Virus record (IMG/VR): IMGVR_UViG_3300048927_000758
Length of the DNA: 64,000 bases
DNA from: an uncultured virus (IMG/VR IMGVR_UViG_3300048927_000758)
Lineage: Duplodnaviria > Heunggongvirae > Uroviricota > Caudoviricetes
Reading direction: 5' to 3' (one strand)
This document shows positions 12,553 to 36,762 of this stretch, one piece after another (the first letter of the stretch is position 1; each line of letters opens with the position of its first letter). Position numbers and translations under genes: made by a program. Under the pieces are notes generated by a model. That model searched no databases, was not told the DNA's origin, and saw nothing but the letters and a program-made list of their open reading frames with translations.

Positions 12553-13194
12553 TCAGGCGGGTATGCCGGTACTGCCGCCGCCCGTCTGGACGCCGCCGTG
12601 TTTATGGGTATGAACAACCACGCCGTTAGACGTGAGGCTGCCGCCTGAGTGGATGAGGTTGCCGGTTAGGGCGCCGCCCTGTTTCACCTCCAGGCTGCCC
12701 GTCGTGAGCTTGTTGGTGCAGACCACTTCGGGCGCGTCGAGCGTAATGCGGGTTTTCGCCGTGCAGGTAATCAGCGGGGCAGTGACTGACACCTTATTCG
12801 CAGCGTTCACCGTGGCAGACTTGATGCCGGTTGCCAGCAGCGCGCCGGTTTTGGGTTCGTACTCAATTACCGCGCCGTCAGGGAAAGTGACGTGAACGGC
12901 ATCGGCTGACGCCGACGGCGCTGGATAGTCATCAGAGAAAACGCCGGGCATCACAAAGGCGGTATCCAGCTCACCGCCCAGGCAAAACAATAAAACCTGC
13001 TCACCGGTAGACGGTGCCCACCAGGAACGCGAGCGCCCTGCGCGGGAGGTCAGCCAGTGCAGCCAGTCGGTGACGTTGCCGCCGGTGTTCACGCGACAGG
13101 TGCCCGCAACTAAATCCACCTCGGCAACGGTGCCAATGCGGATCAGATTGCGCAGCAGGCGCGGAATATCGTTGTTTGGGATGGATGTATTCAT
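12553..13194 (-). CDS. V: Baseplate spike protein gpV
   Basis: RLLRNLIRIGTV...WWAPSTGEQV...C-terminal HTHKH metal-binding tip. Confidence 0.94.
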   Translation of the reverse strand: MNTSIPNNDIPRLLRNLIRIGTVAEVDLVAGTCRVNTGGNVTDWLHWLTSRAGRSRSWWAPSTGEQVLLFCLGGELDTAFVMPGVFSDDYPAPSASADAVHVTFPDGAVIEYEPKTGALLATGIKSATVNAANKVSVTAPLITCTAKTRITLDAPEVVCTNKLTTGSLEVKQGGALTGNLIHSGGSLTSNGVVVHTHKHGGVQTGGGSTGIPA

Positions 13195-13263: not shown

Positions 13264-13300
13264 AGGGATCACTGACTGAGGAATATTAGTCAAACTTGAG

Positions 13301-13363
13301 CTGACACATCTAGTAGGTAGAACATCATCAAATCTGACAGTCTGGTTTGAGCGAGGAACGGAC
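13301..13363. repeat. Left terminal inverted repeat (13301-13340) plus left-type 24-bp half-site (13340-13363) of the accessory block
   Basis: CTGACA-N24-AATCTGACAG mirrors 16528-16567; TGAGCGA-N4-CGGAC recurs at 14101-14116. Confidence 0.7.
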
Positions 13364-13404
13364 CTTCCCTGAATATCCCTTCTCAAATTGGCTGAAAGAA
13401 GGAG

Positions 13405-13938
13405 TCAGCGGGTACTCATAACAAGCTGAACGGCATTTTTCCAGCTGATTCTGAATACAGGGGCATTATCTGATGAAGGCATATCGGATACTGTATGCTC
13501 GGTAATAACTCCGCCTAGCCTTTGGTAAAAGTTGATTGCCCTGACGTTATCTTCAAAAACCCATAGGTAAAGTGGTGACTTAGCATCTTCGCTGCATACC
13601 CACTCTGCTGCATGATGGAGCAATTTTTTTCCTGCGCCCTGGCCTCGCAGTGCAGAACTGACATGCAGGCTGTCAATATACGCCCCCCATTGAGCGTCCT
13701 TCTTTAGCATTACACATATAAACCCTTCAATGTTCTCTTCATTTTCTGCTACAAAGACAGCCACATCTCGGTTGCACTGGTGCAACAGAGACTGCCAGTG
13801 GGAAAAACGCTCATTTTGCGCATGATTTTCGAGAAAGTCTGAAGACATCACATTTCCATATGTATCTCGCCATCCGGCTGCGTGGAGATGTGCAATTGCA
13901 TCGGCATCACTGTATTGAGCTTTTCTTAAATGAATCAC
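13405..13938 (-). CDS. GNAT-family N-acetyltransferase
   Basis: YIDSLHV...RGQGAGKKLL acetyl-CoA motif A and LWVFEDNVRAINFYQRLG motif B; GTG start. Confidence 0.88.
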   Translation of the reverse strand: MIHLRKAQYSDADAIAHLHAAGWRDTYGNVMSSDFLENHAQNERFSHWQSLLHQCNRDVAVFVAENEENIEGFICVMLKKDAQWGAYIDSLHVSSALRGQGAGKKLLHHAAEWVCSEDAKSPLYLWVFEDNVRAINFYQRLGGVITEHTVSDMPSSDNAPVFRISWKNAVQLVMSTR

Positions 13939-14053
13939 GTATGTTCCTTGTCTGAAATCATTATGAGGAAAAAGCTATTATGGTTTGGCAATTAGATGAA
14001 TATTTATCGTAGAAAACAAGACGTGATTAACAAATTGCCACCATTCTGGGAAC

Positions 14054-14116
14054 GTCCGTTTCTGGCACTTATCTGCCTCTCGAAAGATCTCCGGCAGCTA
14101 TGAGCGATCTGCGGAC
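14054..14116. repeat. Internal composite site: right-type half-site (14054-14077), 15-bp spacer, left-type half-site (14093-14116)
   Basis: GTCCGTTTCTGGCACTTATCTGCC ... GGCAGCTATGAGCGATCTGCGGAC; halves match 16505-16528 and 13340-13363. Confidence 0.7.
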
Positions 14117-14148
14117 ATTACTTTTTTGATGAGTTGGTTTAGCAGCGT

Positions 14149-14180
14149 TAAAAAAGCCGCTAACAATAAGCGGCTTTTTT
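14149..14180. terminator. Bidirectional intrinsic terminator after panB
   Basis: AAAAAAGCCGCT-loop-AGCGGCTTTTTT. Confidence 0.8.
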
Positions 14181-14188
14181 AATATAAA

Positions 14189-14989
14189 TCATTCAGAGTA
14201 GCAGTGTTCCTGTGCTGGGAAGCTACCGCCTTTGACAGCGGCAATGTAGCTTTTAAACGCGCCCTGGATGTTTTCCTCTCCCCTCATGAAATTTTTCACG
14301 AATTTTGGGGCCTTGCCGGTGATGCTCAGGCCAAGCATATCGTGAAGAACTAGTACCTGCCCGTCGGTGTCCGGGCCGGCGCCGATGCCGATGACCGGTA
14401 TTGAAACCGCCTCGCTCAGCGCTTTTCCCAGCGAAGCCGGTACTGCCTCGACCAGAACCATCGCCGCCCCCGCCTGTTCAAACTTTTTCGCCGTTTCGAT
14501 CAACGCTTCTGCTTGCTTGCTGTCACGACCCTGAACCTTAAATCCACCAAAGACGTTAACCGACTGCGGAGTGAGTCCGATGTGAGCACACACAGGTATG
14601 CCGTTGCGCGTCAGTTGATGCACCGTGTCACACAACCACTCCCCGCCCTCAATCTTGACCATCTGCGCACCCGCCTGCATCAGTTGCGCCGAGCTGTGCA
14701 GGGCTTGCTCTGGTGAGGAGCAGGTCATGAAAGAAAGGTCGGCGATGATGAAGCCACCGTTGTTTCCGCGCTTTACACAGGTCGTGTGATAAACCATATC
14801 TTCCAGTCTGACCGGCAGGGTGCTGTCATGGCCCTGCAAAATCATCCCTAACGTATCGCCGATGAGGAGCATCTCAACACCCGCCGTGCTCAACTCGTGG
14901 GCAAACGTGGCGTCGTAGCAGGTAAGCATGGTGATCTTTTCACCGCGCTGCTTGAGGTTTTTCAGGTATGTCAGAGTGATTGATGGCAT
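14189..14989 (-). CDS. panB: 3-methyl-2-oxobutanoate hydroxymethyltransferase (ketopantoate hydroxymethyltransferase)
   Basis: MLTCYDA, GD(T)[45 protein letters not shown] motifs. Confidence 0.93.
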
Positions 14990-15167
14990 GGTGTTCTCTG
15001 CTAACTTGTTGCGTTAATAAAGGTTGTTGCGGGTGCGATAATACTGACTTTCGCAACGCTTAATTGTATTTCTCGATTTGCCAGATGCCTTCGAGCCCCG
15101 GCGTGCCGCAGCGCAGATAGGATACCTGCTGCATGATATGTTGTTAATTATCCTGTATGGCCGTGCG

Positions 15168-15782
15168 TCAGAGAAACTGTTCTGCCAACAGCAGAGCCGC
15201 AATAATAATCATCAGGCCGCCCGAAATCCGGCTGACATTCTGCGCCGCACGCGGGCGTGTCCGAAGCACCGTGGCGGAGCCATAGCCCACAAGCAGGTAG
15301 ACCACACCGCAACTGATCATATGTACCAGCCCCAGCGCTATCATCTGCAGCGAAAGCGGCCAGGCGGCGTGGACGTCGGTGAACTGTGGCAACAGAGCCA
15401 GAAACAGCAGAAAGACCTTTGGATTAAGCCCGCTGATGCAAAAGCCCTTGAGCGCCCACTTCAGTCGCGAACCGGCATCGTCACTCTGCCCCGCCGCCGG
15501 TGCGGACGGGTGGCGGAGCATGCCTATGCCGAGCCAGAGCAGATAGCCAGCCCCGGCCACGGTCAGAACGGTCAGCACGCCCGGCGCTCCCGCAATGACT
15601 GAGCCGACTCCCGCTGCCACTATGAGTGTTGCAACAAGATGGCCGCTCAGCATACCGGCAACTGCTGGTACAACACGGTGTCCCTTGATACCGGCTGAAA
15701 TGGCGTAAGCCCAGTCAGCACCGGGCGTGATAACAAAAAGCGCGGAAATAGCCCAGAACGCGGCGAACATACTCAGTGACAT
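15168..15782 (-). CDS. LysE/RhtB-family amino-acid exporter
   Basis: ITPGADW, GAGYLLWLGI, LNPKVFLLFLALLPQF motifs; about 6 hydrophobic segments. Confidence 0.9.
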   Translation of the reverse strand: MSLSMFAAFWAISALFVITPGADWAYAISAGIKGHRVVPAVAGMLSGHLVATLIVAAGVGSVIAGAPGVLTVLTVAGAGYLLWLGIGMLRHPSAPAAGQSDDAGSRLKWALKGFCISGLNPKVFLLFLALLPQFTDVHAAWPLSLQMIALGLVHMISCGVVYLLVGYGSATVLRTRPRAAQNVSRISGGLMIIIAALLLAEQFL

Positions 15783-15961
15783 GCGCCGTTATCCTTATTG
15801 ACCCGATCTCTGACCGACCCTTTATAAACGTCTGAAACCTGCATATAGAGAAACCTTTACCTGCATATTTGTTTAAAATTAAAGAAAGAATATCGCTTTT
15901 TATGCGGGATATGTTTTCATATGCGACTCAAAAACGTAAAAAAATCGGGAGGTTTTAAGTA

Positions 15962-16414
15962 ATGGATAGGGCAGACTGCAATATTCTTGCGGAGCTTCAA
16001 CGGGACGGGAGACTTTCGCTCACTGACTTGGCGGAACGGGTTGGGATCAGCCTGTCATCCTGCCAGCGTCGTGTCAGAGCGCTTGAACAGGAAGGCGTGA
16101 TCTGCGGCTATCGGGCGTATCTCGATCCGTCCAGATTCGGACTGAACTTTTCAGCCTTAGTCTTCGTTACCCTGCGCGAGGGAGACCGACAGGCGGTCAG
16201 CGCCTTTGAGGCGGGAGTAAAAGAGATACCGCAAATTATCCAGGCGCAGCGACTTTTTGGCGATCCGGATTATCTGCTTCACGTTATCACCCGGGACCTG
16301 CAGGCTTTTCAGCAGTTGTATGATGAAAAACTCTCCGGTATGTCAGGCGTGCAGCGACTTACCTCAACGCTGGTTATGAAAACGGTCGTGAAAGATCGCG
16401 CGCTGCCTATCTGA
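15962..16414 (+). CDS. Lrp/AsnC-family transcriptional regulator
   Basis: D..IL.ELQRDGRLS..DLAERVGIS.S.C.RRVR.LE..GVI.GY HTH; G.DYLL; divergent from the exporter. Confidence 0.93.
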   Translation: MDRADCNILAELQRDGRLSLTDLAERVGISLSSCQRRVRALEQEGVICGYRAYLDPSRFGLNFSALVFVTLREGDRQAVSAFEAGVKEIPQIIQAQRLFGDPDYLLHVITRDLQAFQQLYDEKLSGMSGVQRLTSTLVMKTVVKDRALPI

Positions 16415-16504
16415 GGCTGTGCAGGGCGTCAGATTCGATATTTTTTAAGACGTTTTTTTTGCGCGGATAGGAGGTTGTGCTGAGGATCTGTACAAAAGTC
16501 GAGC

Positions 16505-16567
16505 GTCCGCTTCTGGCACAGAGCTGCCTGTCAGATTAGGTTTGGCTCTGTGCCGCAGTTATGTCAG
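16505..16567. repeat. Right-type 24-bp half-site (16505-16528) plus right terminal inverted repeat (16528-16567)
   Basis: GTCCGCTTCTGGCACAGAGCTGCC then CTGTCAGATT-N24-TGTCAG, the reverse-complement pattern of 13301-13340. Confidence 0.7.
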
Positions 16568-17022
16568 GTGAAGTCTGAGCTAAGAAGTATTAGCAATTCA
16601 TCTTCCACAATCTTCATATCCTCCGCGTCCAGTCCTAACAGCGGGCGCGCCGGATACTGCATTTCTTTTGCACGGACGGAAGGACGATCCCGCAGCCCGT
16701 ACTGATGCACCTTCGCCATCCGTTGCACCTGTCCGGTGAATTCCACCACCGCGTCGTCAGCGGTACCTTTGGCCTTCATGTATTTTGCCGTGCGCAGTTT
16801 GGCGAACATCTCCCGCTTAATGCGGCCTTTCTTTGCCCGCAACGGTTGCGGGCGGCGCGGTGTGAATGGCTGCCCCTCCGGTGTCACCTGCTGCTTAATG
16901 CGCTGCTGCTGATGTTTGCGCAGACGCTTCGCAATGGTCGCCGCCATCGCCTTCCGGCTTTGCGGTGACAGCGCGGCAATCAATCCCGCCAGGCGGGTAT
17001 CAAACGCAGTCAGCTCACTCAT
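16564..17022 (-). CDS. S: Tail completion/virion morphogenesis protein gpS
   Basis: QQQRIKQQVTPEG...MFAKLR...VHQYGLRDR...YPARPLLG. Confidence 0.92.
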   Translation of the reverse strand: MSELTAFDTRLAGLIAALSPQSRKAMAATIAKRLRKHQQQRIKQQVTPEGQPFTPRRPQPLRAKKGRIKREMFAKLRTAKYMKAKGTADDAVVEFTGQVQRMAKVHQYGLRDRPSVRAKEMQYPARPLLGLDAEDMKIVEDELLILLSSDFT

Positions 17023-33505: not shown

Positions 33506-34351
33506 ATGGAAATTTTGGAGAAATTTATTTTACAAATTCTTACATCTGCAGCTTTTAGTGTTGCACTTCTAGCATGTTTGGGATGGCTTTTTAGAACCTG
33601 GTTAGGAGAACGGATCCAATTGAGTATTAAAAACGAATATGATAAAAAATTAGAGAAGTTCAAAGCCGAAATCAAAGATGAAGCTGATGTTCGCCTTACA
33701 GATATGAAGGCACTTCTAAATCGTCAATCCGAAATATTAAGAATTACAGCAACCTCTTTCTCTGAAGTCCAAAAAGCCACTATTGCAAGAAAAATTGAGG
33801 CTGTGGATATTCTGTGGCATGGTATTATCACATTTAGGAAAAAATTCCCTAGCTCAGCTTATTTAACAGATATTTTAACAGATAAAGAACTGAGTGAATT
33901 ACATACCGACCCAAATTCACGAAAGCATTCAGAAGAATTAGATAAATTTAATTTAGATGATTTGATTTCGGCTAGTTCCAATGAGGTTTTATTGGTCAGG
34001 CCGCATCTTGGGGAATTTGTATGGGCCCTTTACTCCATCTATTGCACTATCTTAATGCGCTCCATTTTTTTATTAAAATCAGGGAGAAATGAACAAAATA
34101 AAATACTATGGTTTAATGATCAGCGTATAAAAGACCTGATAGAATCAGCTTTTGGTAACGAGCGTTTTTTAGAATTTGAAAAACTTAATTGTGGAAGATA
34201 TCAATGGCTGAGTAATCAGTTCGATTCATCATTATTTAAAGCGATCGATACTCTTCTAACAGGTAAGAGTTTCAGTGACGCTGCTTTGCGCCAAGCACAA
34301 CTAATGGAAAAACATATCTACACTAGTAGTTCTGAGCTCCCCCCACGATAA
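33506..34351 (+). CDS. Hypothetical membrane-anchored accessory protein
   Basis: 281 aa AT-rich ORF; N-terminal hydrophobic helix then charged coiled-coil-like stretch. Confidence 0.75.
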   Translation: MEILEKFILQILTSAAFSVALLACLGWLFRTWLGERIQLSIKNEYDKKLEKFKAEIKDEADVRLTDMKALLNRQSEILRITATSFSEVQKATIARKIEAVDILWHGIITFRKKFPSSAYLTDILTDKELSELHTDPNSRKHSEELDKFNLDDLISASSNEVLLVRPHLGEFVWALYSIYCTILMRSIFLLKSGRNEQNKILWFNDQRIKDLIESAFGNERFLEFEKLNCGRYQWLSNQFDSSLFKAIDTLLTGKSFSDAALRQAQLMEKHIYTSSSELPPR

Positions 34352-34535
34352 AATACTTCCGACATTTAGTAATCTCACGCTTATGGAACTCAACTGACCG
34401 TAATATTTGGCTACACTCAAAAATGACAATTATTTTTCTCTTATATATATGGTTAGCTACCAAAACATTCCATTAACAGCTGCATATAGCAGGCATACAA
34501 CGTTTCGCATAGCCTCCATGAAACCTAGAAAGCAA

Positions 34536-34594
34536 TGGCGATAAAATGGCGATACAATCGGTGTATCATGGCAAATAGTGGTAATAATTGGCAA
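34536..34594 (+). promoter_or_regulatory. int-proximal att arm: Int arm-type repeats and Apl-type repeats
   Basis: TGGCGAT at 34536 and 34547; TGGCAA/TGGTAA/TGGCAA at 34569, 34579, 34589. Confidence 0.65.
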
Positions 34595-34648
34595 CTTATA
34601 TCATTGTTTATTAAAACAAATACTTGTTTTATATAATATTAAGTTGAT

Positions 34649-34701
34649 ACTCATAATCGCTTGGTCGCTGGTTCAAGTCCAGCAAGGGCCACCAAATTTT
34701 A
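34649..34701 (+). repeat. att core, copy 2 (3' half of tRNA-Ile); junction between prophages 1 and 2
   Basis: Exact 53-bp match to 678-730; lacks the tRNA 5' half. Confidence 0.95.
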
Positions 34702-34720
34702 TATTTAAAATCATGCATTT

Positions 34721-34749
34721 AAGCCACTTTATTGAAAAGTGGCTTTTTT
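34721..34749 (+). terminator. Intrinsic terminator after att copy 2
   Basis: AAGCCACTTT-loop-AAAGTGGCTT plus T-tract; homologous to 750-777. Confidence 0.75.
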
Positions 34750-34901
34750 GTTTATGCCGTTGATGTCGCAAATTCGTCGCACAAGCTCTTACATTTGTAA
34801 AGCGGCACCTCTACAACTTATGGGATTTGTAAGCTCTGTCTGTTTGAAACCTTGGTAAACTATGCGATATTGACCTATCGAAAATCGTATCAGGAAGAAA
34901 C

Positions 34902-35798
34902 ATGTTCGATTCGAGAACAGGCCTTACCATCATGGTTCCTACGCTAAACGATACAGAAAGTGATTTCTCACGCTTGTTTATGATTTTTGAGCAAGTAATG
35001 AGCTCTACAACGCAACAGGTTCTCTTTGTTTTCACTTATTGTCGTTTCTTAAGGCCAAACGCTGTTGCTTTCCTTGGCGGAACCGTTCGCTCTCTTCAGA
35101 GAAAGGGGGTAACTGTATTCATTGATTGGACTTCCTTCCAAGAAAAGGTAAAAGCTTCACTTACACAAAATACTTTTTGCAGCAAACTTGGCCATGGCAC
35201 CCCTGGCTATTTAGGCCATGCAATTCCATATAGAGAGGATCCCAGGGAGGATGCAAACTCTATACTTGATTATTTAACACAAAATTGGATCGGTAAAGGT
35301 TGGGTGAAAGTTAGTGAAGAGCTTAGAGATGCGATTGCAGGTAAAGTCTGGGAGATATACGCTAACTCTTTTGAACACTCTAATTCATTAATAGGTGTAT
35401 ATTCTTGTGGCCAGCATTTCTATGGGAGAAATGAGCTTGTGTTATCTGTCGTCGACTTCGGCGTCGGAATACCACATAACGTTCGAGAGTATCTATCTTC
35501 AGATTCAAGAGCAGCATCTTTAACAGCTGAATCTTGCTTAAGATGGGCTTGTGTAAGTGGTAATACCACAGCCACGGCAAAAGGAATACCGAGAGGTTTA
35601 GGTTTACACTTACTAAAAGAACTTGTTCGAGTGAATAACGGAAAATTAGAACTTTATAGTCATAATGCTTATGTAAAGATGGATAGCTCTGGTGATGAAT
35701 TTAAAACCTTACCATTTTTCTTTAAAGGTACTATACTGAACATTACATTAGTCTGTGATGAGAAGTATTATAGACTCACTTCAGAATCAGGGAAATAA
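34902..35798 (+). CDS. GHKL (HATPase_c-like) ATP-binding protein with possible N-terminal STAS-like domain
   Basis: N box EIYANSFEHS, G1 box VVDFGVGI, G2 box RGLGL, C-terminal KGT; N-terminal F...RFLRPNAVAFL segment. Confidence 0.75.
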   Translation: MFDSRTGLTIMVPTLNDTESDFSRLFMIFEQVMSSTTQQVLFVFTYCRFLRPNAVAFLGGTVRSLQRKGVTVFIDWTSFQEKVKASLTQNTFCSKLGHGTPGYLGHAIPYREDPREDANSILDYLTQNWIGKGWVKVSEELRDAIAGKVWEIYANSFEHSNSLIGVYSCGQHFYGRNELVLSVVDFGVGIPHNVREYLSSDSRAASLTAESCLRWACVSGNTTATAKGIPRGLGLHLLKELVRVNNGKLELYSHNAYVKMDSSGDEFKTLPFFFKGTILNITLVCDEKYYRLTSESGK

Positions 35799-35800
35799 TA

Positions 35801-36151
35801 ATGCGTATATTAATAAAAGAGTTCATCGGCCCAAGATGTATATTGAAAGATGATGGACAAAAACTCTTCGATAAAATTTCTTCGCTGCTAGATAGCAAGA
35901 GTGAAGTTATATTGGATTTCTCCAATGTTAGAATGTTTGCCTCGCCATTTTTTAATTATAGTATAGGCCAGTTGTTTAGTAATTTCTCTGAGAAGGAAAT
36001 ACGAGAATCATTACACCTTGAGAACCTAGAACCTGTTGGGCACTCAATTATTGAACGAGTTATTGAAAATGTAAATAGGTTCAACTCTGATGTAGACTAT
36101 AAGAAAATAGTGGACGAGATTCTTGAACAACAAGCCAAGGAGTCAGACTAA
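35801..36151 (+). CDS. Stand-alone STAS-like protein (DUF4325-like)
   Basis: DGQKLF..I......VILDFSNV..FASPFFN..IGQL pattern. Confidence 0.75.
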   Translation: MRILIKEFIGPRCILKDDGQKLFDKISSLLDSKSEVILDFSNVRMFASPFFNYSIGQLFSNFSEKEIRESLHLENLEPVGHSIIERVIENVNRFNSDVDYKKIVDEILEQQAKESD

Positions 36152-36762
36152 TGGCATTCTCTGGAACAATATTATCTAATGTCATTGATATAAATAATTA
36201 CATCCCGAAAGATAAAGATAATTTCTTTGTGGATACTAATGTATGGTTTTGGCTAACCTACTCCAAAGGAATCCCTCAAGGGAGGTCTTATTTACACATT
36301 TATAATCAATTTATTAACTCAGCTTTGAATAACAATTCTAAACTCTATCATTCTGGGTTAACACTAGCCGAATTAGCTCATATAATAGAAAAATCAGAAA
36401 GAGAAATTCACGGAAAAGTAATTAATAAAACAATATCCACTAAAGATTTCCGTCATTTATTCTCTGTACAAAGACTTGCTGCAATTAAGGAAGTAGAGAC
36501 TTCATGGCTTCAAGTTGAGAGTCTTGCAGAACAAATTGAAATTAATATTTGTGAAAACATTACCGATAATTGTGTAACAAAAATGCCTTCAAATTCATTA
36601 GATGGTTATGATCTCATGATTCACGAGAGCATGCTCAACTCCGGAATATTAAACATAGTTACTGACGACGGGGATTATACCACCGTGCCAGGGATTAACG
36701 TTTATACGTCAAATAAAAACGTACTACTTGCAGCATTGCAACAAAAAAGACTCATCCTTTGA
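36151..36762 (+). CDS. PIN-domain protein (putative RNase)
   Basis: FFVDTNVW, LAEL, DGYD, IVTDDGDY acidic tetrad. Confidence 0.82.
   Translation: MAFSGTILSNVIDINNYIPKDKDNFFVDTNVWFWLTYSKGIPQGRSYLHIYNQFINSALNNNSKLYHSGLTLAELAHIIEKSEREIHGKVINKTISTKDFRHLFSVQRLAAIKEVETSWLQVESLAEQIEINICENITDNCVTKMPSNSLDGYDLMIHESMLNSGILNIVTDDGDYTTVPGINVYTSNKNVLLAALQQKRLIL

Follow-up and report, generated by a model that had tools for sequence, protein, structure and literature searches.

The window analysed here is a 64,000-nucleotide stretch from an uncultured virus of the Caudoviricetes (IMG/VR record IMGVR_UViG_3300048927_000758), in which the interval between the P2-type genes V and S holds GNAT, panB, lysE and lrp genes (Pfam). 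This block is bounded at its left and right ends by the motif CTGACA-N24-AATCTGACAG, with 25 of 40 positions identical between the ends, and contains two classes of 24-bp site in the order L1, R1, L2, R2 (Table 1). The original prediction, made from the sequence alone, had described the block as strictly punctuated, and all of its motifs and coordinates were found as written. A weight matrix was built from the terminal sites of related prophages (45 sites, none from the window). It gives the four sites scores of 30.5, 19.7, 22.3 and 35.0, compared with a best score of 16.2 in 60 simulated 3.1-kb sequences; the sole other match of at least 11 in the rest of the window scores 12.5. Comparison with related loci points to two nested systems, a reading to which we give a probability of roughly 0.7: a carrier with ends of the IS481 family of insertion sequences (IS) and, inside it, a two-site cassette array exchanged by a small tyrosine recombinase.

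Both gene units of the window recur elsewhere between foreign flanks. The GNAT unit is 95% identical in a plasmid of Erwinia rhapontici. At 93% identity it is found on a metagenome contig and on a plasmid of Rahnella victoriana; both plasmids have other flanks, and identity ends right after the R core at 14068. The panB-lysE-lrp unit is found, 82% identical and with its own L and R, among integrative and conjugative element (ICE) genes of a Pantoea plasmid, where no IS ends were seen. Contigs assembled from four public runs of four studies, a possible source run being left out, hold the GNAT cassette without a single difference between foreign flanks (13346-14069 in run X3 and 13348-14068 in run X6). 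Run X3 also has loose ends behind 14069 (R1), before 14097 (L2) and behind 16519 (R2), and run X2 a platform-side break before 16514 at R2. In these contigs different stretches of 721, 1942 or 2112 letters adjoin the same phage ends, and one copy of the array has other sequence before 13348, resembling a further junction; precise loss of one cassette from the window array was seen in no contig of the four runs among the joints listed. The proposal that each L..R unit is a separately mobile cassette of an expandable array, using non-attC sites and an enzyme acting in trans, is supported by cassettes that recur with foreign flanks and by breaks that fall within the sites.

The interval in which crossover appears to take place was mapped with 277 non-redundant sites. 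Copies of the same cassette with different outer flanks (14 R pairs and 11 L pairs, which are not independent) are identical at site positions 10-24, with the exception of R position 19, and differ at 1-9; copies of the same flank with different cassettes keep positions 1-15 and reach background from 16-17. Since cassettes keep 10-24 and flanks keep 1-15, the sites have a 9-6-9 structure with the cores GTGCCA (R) and GAGCGA (L), and their arms are 9-bp inverted repeats of the GTCCGCT type. The 24-bp sites are present as foreseen but are degenerate 9-6-9 palindromes rather than imperfect hairpins: single sites fold poorly, at -0.7 to -2.2 kcal/mol. No relevant Rfam match was found for the sites or the junction between them.

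The polarity of the arrays is strict. Sites that stand back to back are L followed by R in 52 of 52 junctions (34 of 34 after dropping those selected by pattern), with spacers of 0-27 nt, mostly 14-18, and face-to-face pairs are L..R in 109 of 110 cases. Genes within cassettes have both orientations (50 versus 28). Two metagenome loci of 99% identity differ in the order of their cassettes, L213 being S0-X-S1-Y and L215 S0-Y-S1-X, with the outer arms staying with the spacers. Such a swap needs a crossover at each site type, R×R once and L×L once; it is unreachable if exchange always uses one arm, as at attC. The strict junction pattern was present in 6 of 401 genomes of an order sample and 1 of 401 of a class sample, with none in the reversed-pattern controls; these counts are a lower bound and not a prevalence.

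A candidate for the enzyme, a tyrosine recombinase of 200 amino acids (aa), is encoded by a 3.8-kb block. Five metagenome contigs share this block at 99.6-99.97% identity, next to five different neighbours on the R side and four on the L side. Among homologues of at least 82% identity, 16 of 17 distinct flanks (18 of 33 overall) have an R site whose start is 19-21 nt past the last codon. Facing outwards, an L site usually begins 39 nt before the ATG, and the DNA beyond the sites is unrelated. In all six copies listed from GTDB genomes, L is found 39 nt upstream and the downstream side has an R-type sequence, degenerate in one of them; some GTDB copies sit in long single-polarity arrays that lack IS ends, and two genomes have three junctions, found by pattern, 5-9 kb from the recombinase gene. 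In other arrays the recombinase gene occupies the slot that is the spacer module in the window. The catalytic residues R51, K79, H148, R151, H174 and Y183 are present, making up the R-K-H-R-H pentad and the tyrosine, and a structure model (predicted local distance difference test score 85.9) contains the catalytic domain only, with XerA, XerH and Cre as the best Foldseek matches at 16-20% identity. No NCBIfam model scores above its cut-off for this protein and the PDB holds no sequence match to it. A very large number of proteins belong to this family (7999 of 8000 candidates scored). In passages of a survey of tyrosine recombinases, which sorts groups with at least a core-binding and a catalytic domain, the small family is not mentioned, although members could be listed in its supplement (PMC8138268).

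The window itself was expected to lack a cassette recombinase, and neither this enzyme nor an IS481 transposase was detected in it by Pfam and tblastn; the best tblastn match to the 200-aa protein (E 0.037) is the C-terminal box of the phage integrase. From the position of its gene in other arrays, the 200-aa recombinase is likely to be the enzyme that acts in trans on the window sites. Homologues of 59-64% identity (loci L260-L264 and L283) are flanked by related sites that have, by eye, other cores (CGGCCA-type downstream and GGGTCG-type upstream), which suggests orthogonal site families. In loci L318-L320, at 39 nt upstream of the ATG, the small recombinase gene has its ribosome-binding site and its start codon within an inverted repeat, possibly a translation brake.

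The comparison also took in 80 related prophage loci, 72 of which span S to V. With an end threshold of 45/63, which misses some ends with small indels, 17 intervals have both ends, nine the S end only, six the V end only and 40 neither; two of these 40 (L031 and L041) are empty, 74-76 bp in length and without element ends. With the window included, 18 double-ended elements carry 16 cargo types. Up to and including site position 15 the relatives are 0.89-0.95 identical to the window; identity falls to 0.42-0.52 at 16-17 and is 0.26-0.27 inside. The same bay holds a three-gene PADLOC Hp1-Hp2-Hp3 set in one relative (L012:7834-10592), an arsenic-resistance operon of the arsH-arsR-arsB-arsC type in another (L008:7564-10435) and a 982-aa NACHT/STAND-like protein in a third (L016:1067-4012), and AbiU-like, HEPN and STAND proteins are found by PADLOC or Pfam among the cargo of close relatives. 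The end-less intervals (for example L025, L026, L030 and L032) have inserts of ~0.7-3.1 kb, mostly AT-rich in the ends examined, and are a second way in which this locus varies.

The outer repeats proved to be of a different nature from the sites. In plasmid copies the ends reach ~20 bp beyond the inverted repeats as drawn in the original prediction; the mirrored repeats with equal spacing stand, but the true ends lie 19-20 bp further out, at ~13282 and 16587, and the 1-nt overlap between repeat and half-site was merely a product of how the boundary was drawn. A scan of GTDB for the element end gave 73 loci, 37 with a partner end within 8 kb, of which 34 pairs were kept after removal of a duplicate (L170, of L169), a near-duplicate (L183, of L121) and a pair at a contig edge (L136). 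Perfect 7-bp flanking duplications are present in 17 of these 34 pairs and 6-7 of 7 bases match in 22, compared with a mean of 1.3 and a maximum of 6 with 6-7 of 7 matches in shuffled pairings; lengths of 5, 6, 8 and 9 are at background level. The 22 duplications have an NNTNANN target bias, and intact relatives have TGT...ACA ends. Five 1.2-kb elements share the end and lack L/R sites; their proteins exceed the IS481 NCBIfam cut-off (NF033577) in 4 of 4 tested and are 86-88% identical to transposases annotated ISSod13 and ISVvu4, names that were taken from RefSeq annotation. The annotated ISSod13 end is identical to the reference end at 25 of 26 positions, and a perfect 7-bp duplication flanks an ISVvu4 copy but not the ISSod13 copy examined. 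Terminal repeats once assigned to the cassette system are thus the inner parts of IS481-type transposon ends; a match to a known IS end, which had been named as grounds for rejecting a cassette array, exists for the outer layer only and not for the L/R layer. A reading as IS1-type ends with 9-bp duplications was rejected, the duplications being 7 bp and the partner IS481.

Many paired elements have L and R at a fixed 59-nt offset inside their ends. None of the paired elements with sites is an empty IS-ended bay (the shortest is 593 bp), as expected if a bay with one R and one L cannot be emptied by like-core exchange. Compared with members of the ISSod13/ISVvu4 group of IS481, with which it shares TGT...ACA ends, a 26-bp terminal repeat and 7-bp duplications as a family, the window element has no transposase, both of its ends resemble one IS end, its interior is an array of recombinase sites and its termini are eroded. 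Non-autonomous cargo elements with IS ends have been named MITE-flanked elements or mobile insertion cassettes. The S-side remnant matches an autonomous IS end (L133) at 21 of 26 positions and the ISSod13 end at 20 of 26, the consensus of the relatives reaching 22-23 of 26; on the V side this consensus agrees with the IS end in 23 of 26 positions, and other assemblies have a base inserted at 13289. Relative to the ends of its relatives both termini of the window element are eroded, and it is probably immobile and serves as a bay. The second AATCTGACA repeat of the subterminal segments is possibly a transposase-binding repeat. The C-terminus of S reads LLILLSSDFT in the window and LMKLLSQ in an empty relative. 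In passages of a published account, duplications of the IS481 family are 2-15 bp, mostly 6 (PMC10045372).

Table 1. Features of the V-S block, in window coordinates.
Feature	Position	Strand	Remarks
Whole element, read as non-autonomous: IS481-type ends and two-cassette array	~13282..16587	.	Inside last codons of S
V-side remnant of 26-bp IS481-type terminal inverted repeat	13282..13306	+	1-bp deletion in window
V-side subterminal segment, ends in second AATCTGACA repeat	13307..13339	+	Outer 39 nt conserved 0.90 in 19 relatives
Site L1	13340..13363	+	9-bp arm, core GAGCGA 13349-13354, 9-bp arm
Cassette 1, core to core	13349..14068	-	GNAT acetyltransferase gene 13405-13938 (Pfam PF00583)
Site R1	14054..14077	-	Core GTGCCA 14063-14068; identity of L231, L232 and L208 stops at 14068
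Spacer module	14069..14101	.	R1 outer arm, 15-bp spacer 14078-14092, L2 outer arm
Site L2	14093..14116	+	Core GAGCGA 14102-14107
Cassette 2, core to core	14102..16519	.	panB 14189-14989 (-), lysE 15168-15782 (-), lrp 15962-16414 (+); Pfam
Site R2	16505..16528	-	Core GTGCCA 16514-16519
S-side subterminal segment, second AATCTGACA repeat	16529..16561	-	Outer 39 nt conserved 0.95 in 24 relatives
S-side remnant of IS481-type terminal inverted repeat	16562..16587	-	Provides new S stop codon
GCTAATA, probable remaining copy of 7-bp target duplication	16588..16594	-	Fits NNTNANN bias
Flank: P2-type tail completion gene S	16564..17022	-	PF05069
Flank: P2-type baseplate spike gene V	12553..13194	-	PF04717, PF18715

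In the mechanism that we propose, a non-autonomous carrier with ISSod13/ISVvu4-type ends would have been transposed into the end of S of a P2-like phage, mobilised in trans, we infer, by an IS481 transposase, and later erosion of its termini would have turned it into a fixed cargo bay. L and R would be two classes of 24-bp tyrosine-recombinase site with inverted 9-bp arms and asymmetric 6-bp cores, of which only like cores recombine (R×R and L×L). Cassettes (R..genes..L) would alternate with spacer modules (L..spacer..R) in a single polarity, such that one crossover would excise or insert a cassette plus spacer as a circle and two crossovers would replace or reorder cassettes. The catalyst would be the recombinase of 200 aa that consists of the catalytic domain only, its gene residing in the spacer slot of other arrays and its product acting in trans here. 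Sequence comparison shows the IS481-type ends, the 7-bp duplications, the mobility of the cassettes, the interval of crossover, the polarity and the linkage of recombinase gene and sites; the identity of the acting enzyme, circular intermediates, a double-stranded substrate and mobilisation in trans are deduced from these.

Several observations weigh against this mechanism. No circle was seen among the assembled contigs; loci L212-L216, which include the swapped pair, are metagenome assemblies; the presence of the recombinase in the same cell as the window is presumed; and its homologues at 54-65% identity fall below the site threshold of this matrix. In 12 of the 34 paired elements, five or fewer of the 7 duplication bases match, and neither the window nor its relatives show a target duplication at S-V; on a parsimonious reading, the second GCTAATA copy would have been lost by slippage against the similar element end. 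The outer arms of L and R covary weakly in junctions (p 0.06 and 0.03, in related sequences) and the spacer lengths cluster at 14-18 nt, both of which could reflect hairpin folding. Further points are taken up below with the alternatives on which they bear.

The covariation and the spacer preference are also what would be expected of an attC- or CTX-like process, in which the small recombinase or another enzyme would use the mismatched core of a folded single-stranded L-spacer-R junction as its substrate and exchange one strand. Of 24 positions in the 63-bp junction 16 are paired, and the junction folds at -7.6/-8.9 kcal/mol, leaving two conserved core mismatches when folded. However, the swap between L213 and L215 needs crossovers at both site types, spacer modules range from 0 nt to ~0.9 kb, some with the recombinase gene, terminal sites that have no partner arm are exchanged at the same core, and attC core motifs are absent. 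We consider this process unlikely; the data fit exchange of double-stranded DNA at the 6-bp cores better than the folded single-stranded hairpin that had been envisaged.

With the query used here, the small recombinase was found in five of ten genomes checked that carry sites or ends, and the prophage has its own integrase. Both facts would suit an enzyme of the host or the phage (XerC/D, the P2 integrase or a Tn554-like pair) as the acting recombinase, with the small recombinase gene a mere passenger. Yet the arms are unlike the 11-bp XerC and XerD sites described in passages of PMC13141974, the small recombinase gene lies between L and R at fixed distances from both while its flanks vary freely, and distant homologues have related sites with other cores (by eye). 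The prophage integrase has only the C-terminal box in common with the candidate. The Tn554-like pair, noticed beside an R site in L088/L188, was rejected since an R site follows the pair in only one of nine loci listed, and one of the other loci ends at the stop codon. We regard a passenger role as quite improbable: instead of host Xer, phage integrase or an HUH enzyme, as first supposed, probably none of these but the dedicated recombinase known from other arrays is the better fit. Tn554-like pairs themselves (L188:8994-12124 and L190-L198) are often beside umuD, with varied cargo, and are unrelated to L/R sites.

A further point is that 40 of the 72 S-V intervals have other inserts or none and lack these ends; the two-layer system therefore covers only part of the variation at the locus. 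Variation in these 40 in the absence of any sites, and ends conserved at 0.90-0.95 among prophages that could give homology, would accord with inert sites and with cargo swapped by homologous or phage Red-type recombination in the conserved 60-80 bp ends or in short repeats. Breakpoints are confined to site positions 10-15, however, polarity is strict, and cassettes cross between bays with IS ends, plasmids and ICE regions, which have only the 24-bp sites in common; this makes the explanation very improbable. It is scarcely credible that an IS481 transposase does everything and L/R are internal IS signals, as their fixed 59-nt offset inside the ends of many elements might suggest, since autonomous copies lack L/R, long L/R arrays lack IS ends within 16-20 kb in 6 of 6 regions, which largely refutes it, and no target duplication is apparent at the L/R junctions examined.

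The bay at S-V has a counterpart in P2 itself. A link to inverted repeats around variable inserts in P2-like coliphages had been raised from the outset, and the window ends are indeed identical to the annotated left and right inverted repeats of the P2-EC58 Z region at 53 of 63 and 33 of 37 positions. The outer repeats of the P2 Z/fun locus are therefore already known in print, in records AJ512676-AJ512685, which we take to belong to Nilsson, Karlsson and Haggard-Ljungquist (2004). In the three records examined only the outer repeats are annotated; two of them (P2-EC46 and P2-EC48) contain unannotated internal L/R sites between open reading frames (ORFs), and the Z-region records have degenerate TGT-starting ends 59 nt before the sites. 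The Z/fun locus thus shares its annotated ends and variable cargo with the window, but its bay lies at G-FI and that of the window at S-V. Neither the two-site system nor bays with IS481 ends were found described in a full-text search, most subscription papers being outside it; the passages of a 2022 study of P2/P4 hotspots leave open the exchange mechanism at a different P2 hotspot (PMC9122126).

Like integrons, these arrays are expandable series of small cassettes, often for defence or detoxification, that can be carried by transposon ends, and those that have no linked integrase resemble clusters of attC sites lacking integrases (CALINs). Unlike integrons, they have two sites per cassette with crossovers at both, genes of mixed orientation (instead of one site per cassette and co-oriented genes) and no attC cores: RYYYAAC and GTTRRRY are absent from the four sites and the junction on either strand. 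No IntI with a core-binding domain and the integron-specific insertion, described as essential in passages of PMC8138268, is present in the window, and in structural alignment the 200-aa recombinase differs from the integron integrase 2a3v in lacking the core-binding domain, at 15% identity. A scan for a Pc promoter gave only weak consensus matches (9 of 12). Closer in operation are the dif modules of Acinetobacter, for which passages of PMC13141974 describe two module types that must alternate, crossover only at matching 6-bp spacers, and movement as pairs or replacement by two crossovers. Alternation and crossover between matching 6-bp sequences are both found in L/R arrays. As far as those passages go, dif modules differ in having 11-bp XerC plus 11-bp XerD sites, by eye unlike the palindromic 9-bp arms, and variable spacers where L/R arrays have two fixed cores and a probable dedicated recombinase. 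In L/R arrays, moreover, one module type is only 0-27 bp or carries the recombinase, and the hosts are Enterobacterales phages, plasmids and chromosomes. The L/R system thus works like dif modules and has an integron-like role but lacks the defining sites and enzymes of both. In engineered recombinase-mediated cassette exchange, heterospecific lox or FRT sites with two non-interacting cores give directional replacement. The L/R system would be a natural version of this, with 24-bp sites and a much smaller enzyme.

Some further features were noted at or near these elements. Cassette 2 contains a terminator-like hairpin at 14150-14180, read directly from the sequence, and its interval between lysE and panB (14990-15167) has neither the brnQ nor the small ORF found there in Klebsiella plasmid relatives. 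A 10-bp inverted copy of part of R2 lies at 16544-16553, and 16505-16567 folds at -13.5 kcal/mol. Miniatures of ~75 bp consisting of an IS481-type end and the inverted copy of that end found inside the IS are present at L132:3287-3361 and in L140 (from 8025, minus strand). In L002, L013, L172, L231, L282 and L305, two other conserved terminal motifs start at or in the L/R cores and replace the inner arm; they may resemble IS1182- and IS30-type ends and may be further elements that use these sites. Elsewhere in the window, an AT-rich block (33506-36762, GC 0.33-0.38) follows the phage integrase; it has a weak matrix match of the L type at 35620 and three ORFs, one of which has a weak PIN domain.

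Taken more broadly, and with some reserve, we favour the view that L/R arrays would add to integrons and dif modules a third gene-cassette system of natural origin, one that is widespread in Proteobacteria. Its one-domain tyrosine recombinase would use two non-interacting 6-bp cores, the recombinase gene would be one of the removable spacer modules, and related enzymes would work on different pairs of cores; a common pool of cassettes for defence, metal resistance and metabolism would serve phages, plasmids and transposons with IS481 ends. The window joins both layers, IS481 ends and recombinase sites, and maps the crossover. P2-like phages have a variable locus bounded by repeats, observed twenty years ago, for which this would provide a concrete and testable mechanism. 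Since the bay cargo includes an ars operon and defence-type genes, L/R sites, which mark gene boundaries, would be useful for the mining of defence genes, and, if the mechanism is true, engineering would gain a compact tool in a 200-aa recombinase that has heterospecific sites of 24 bp.

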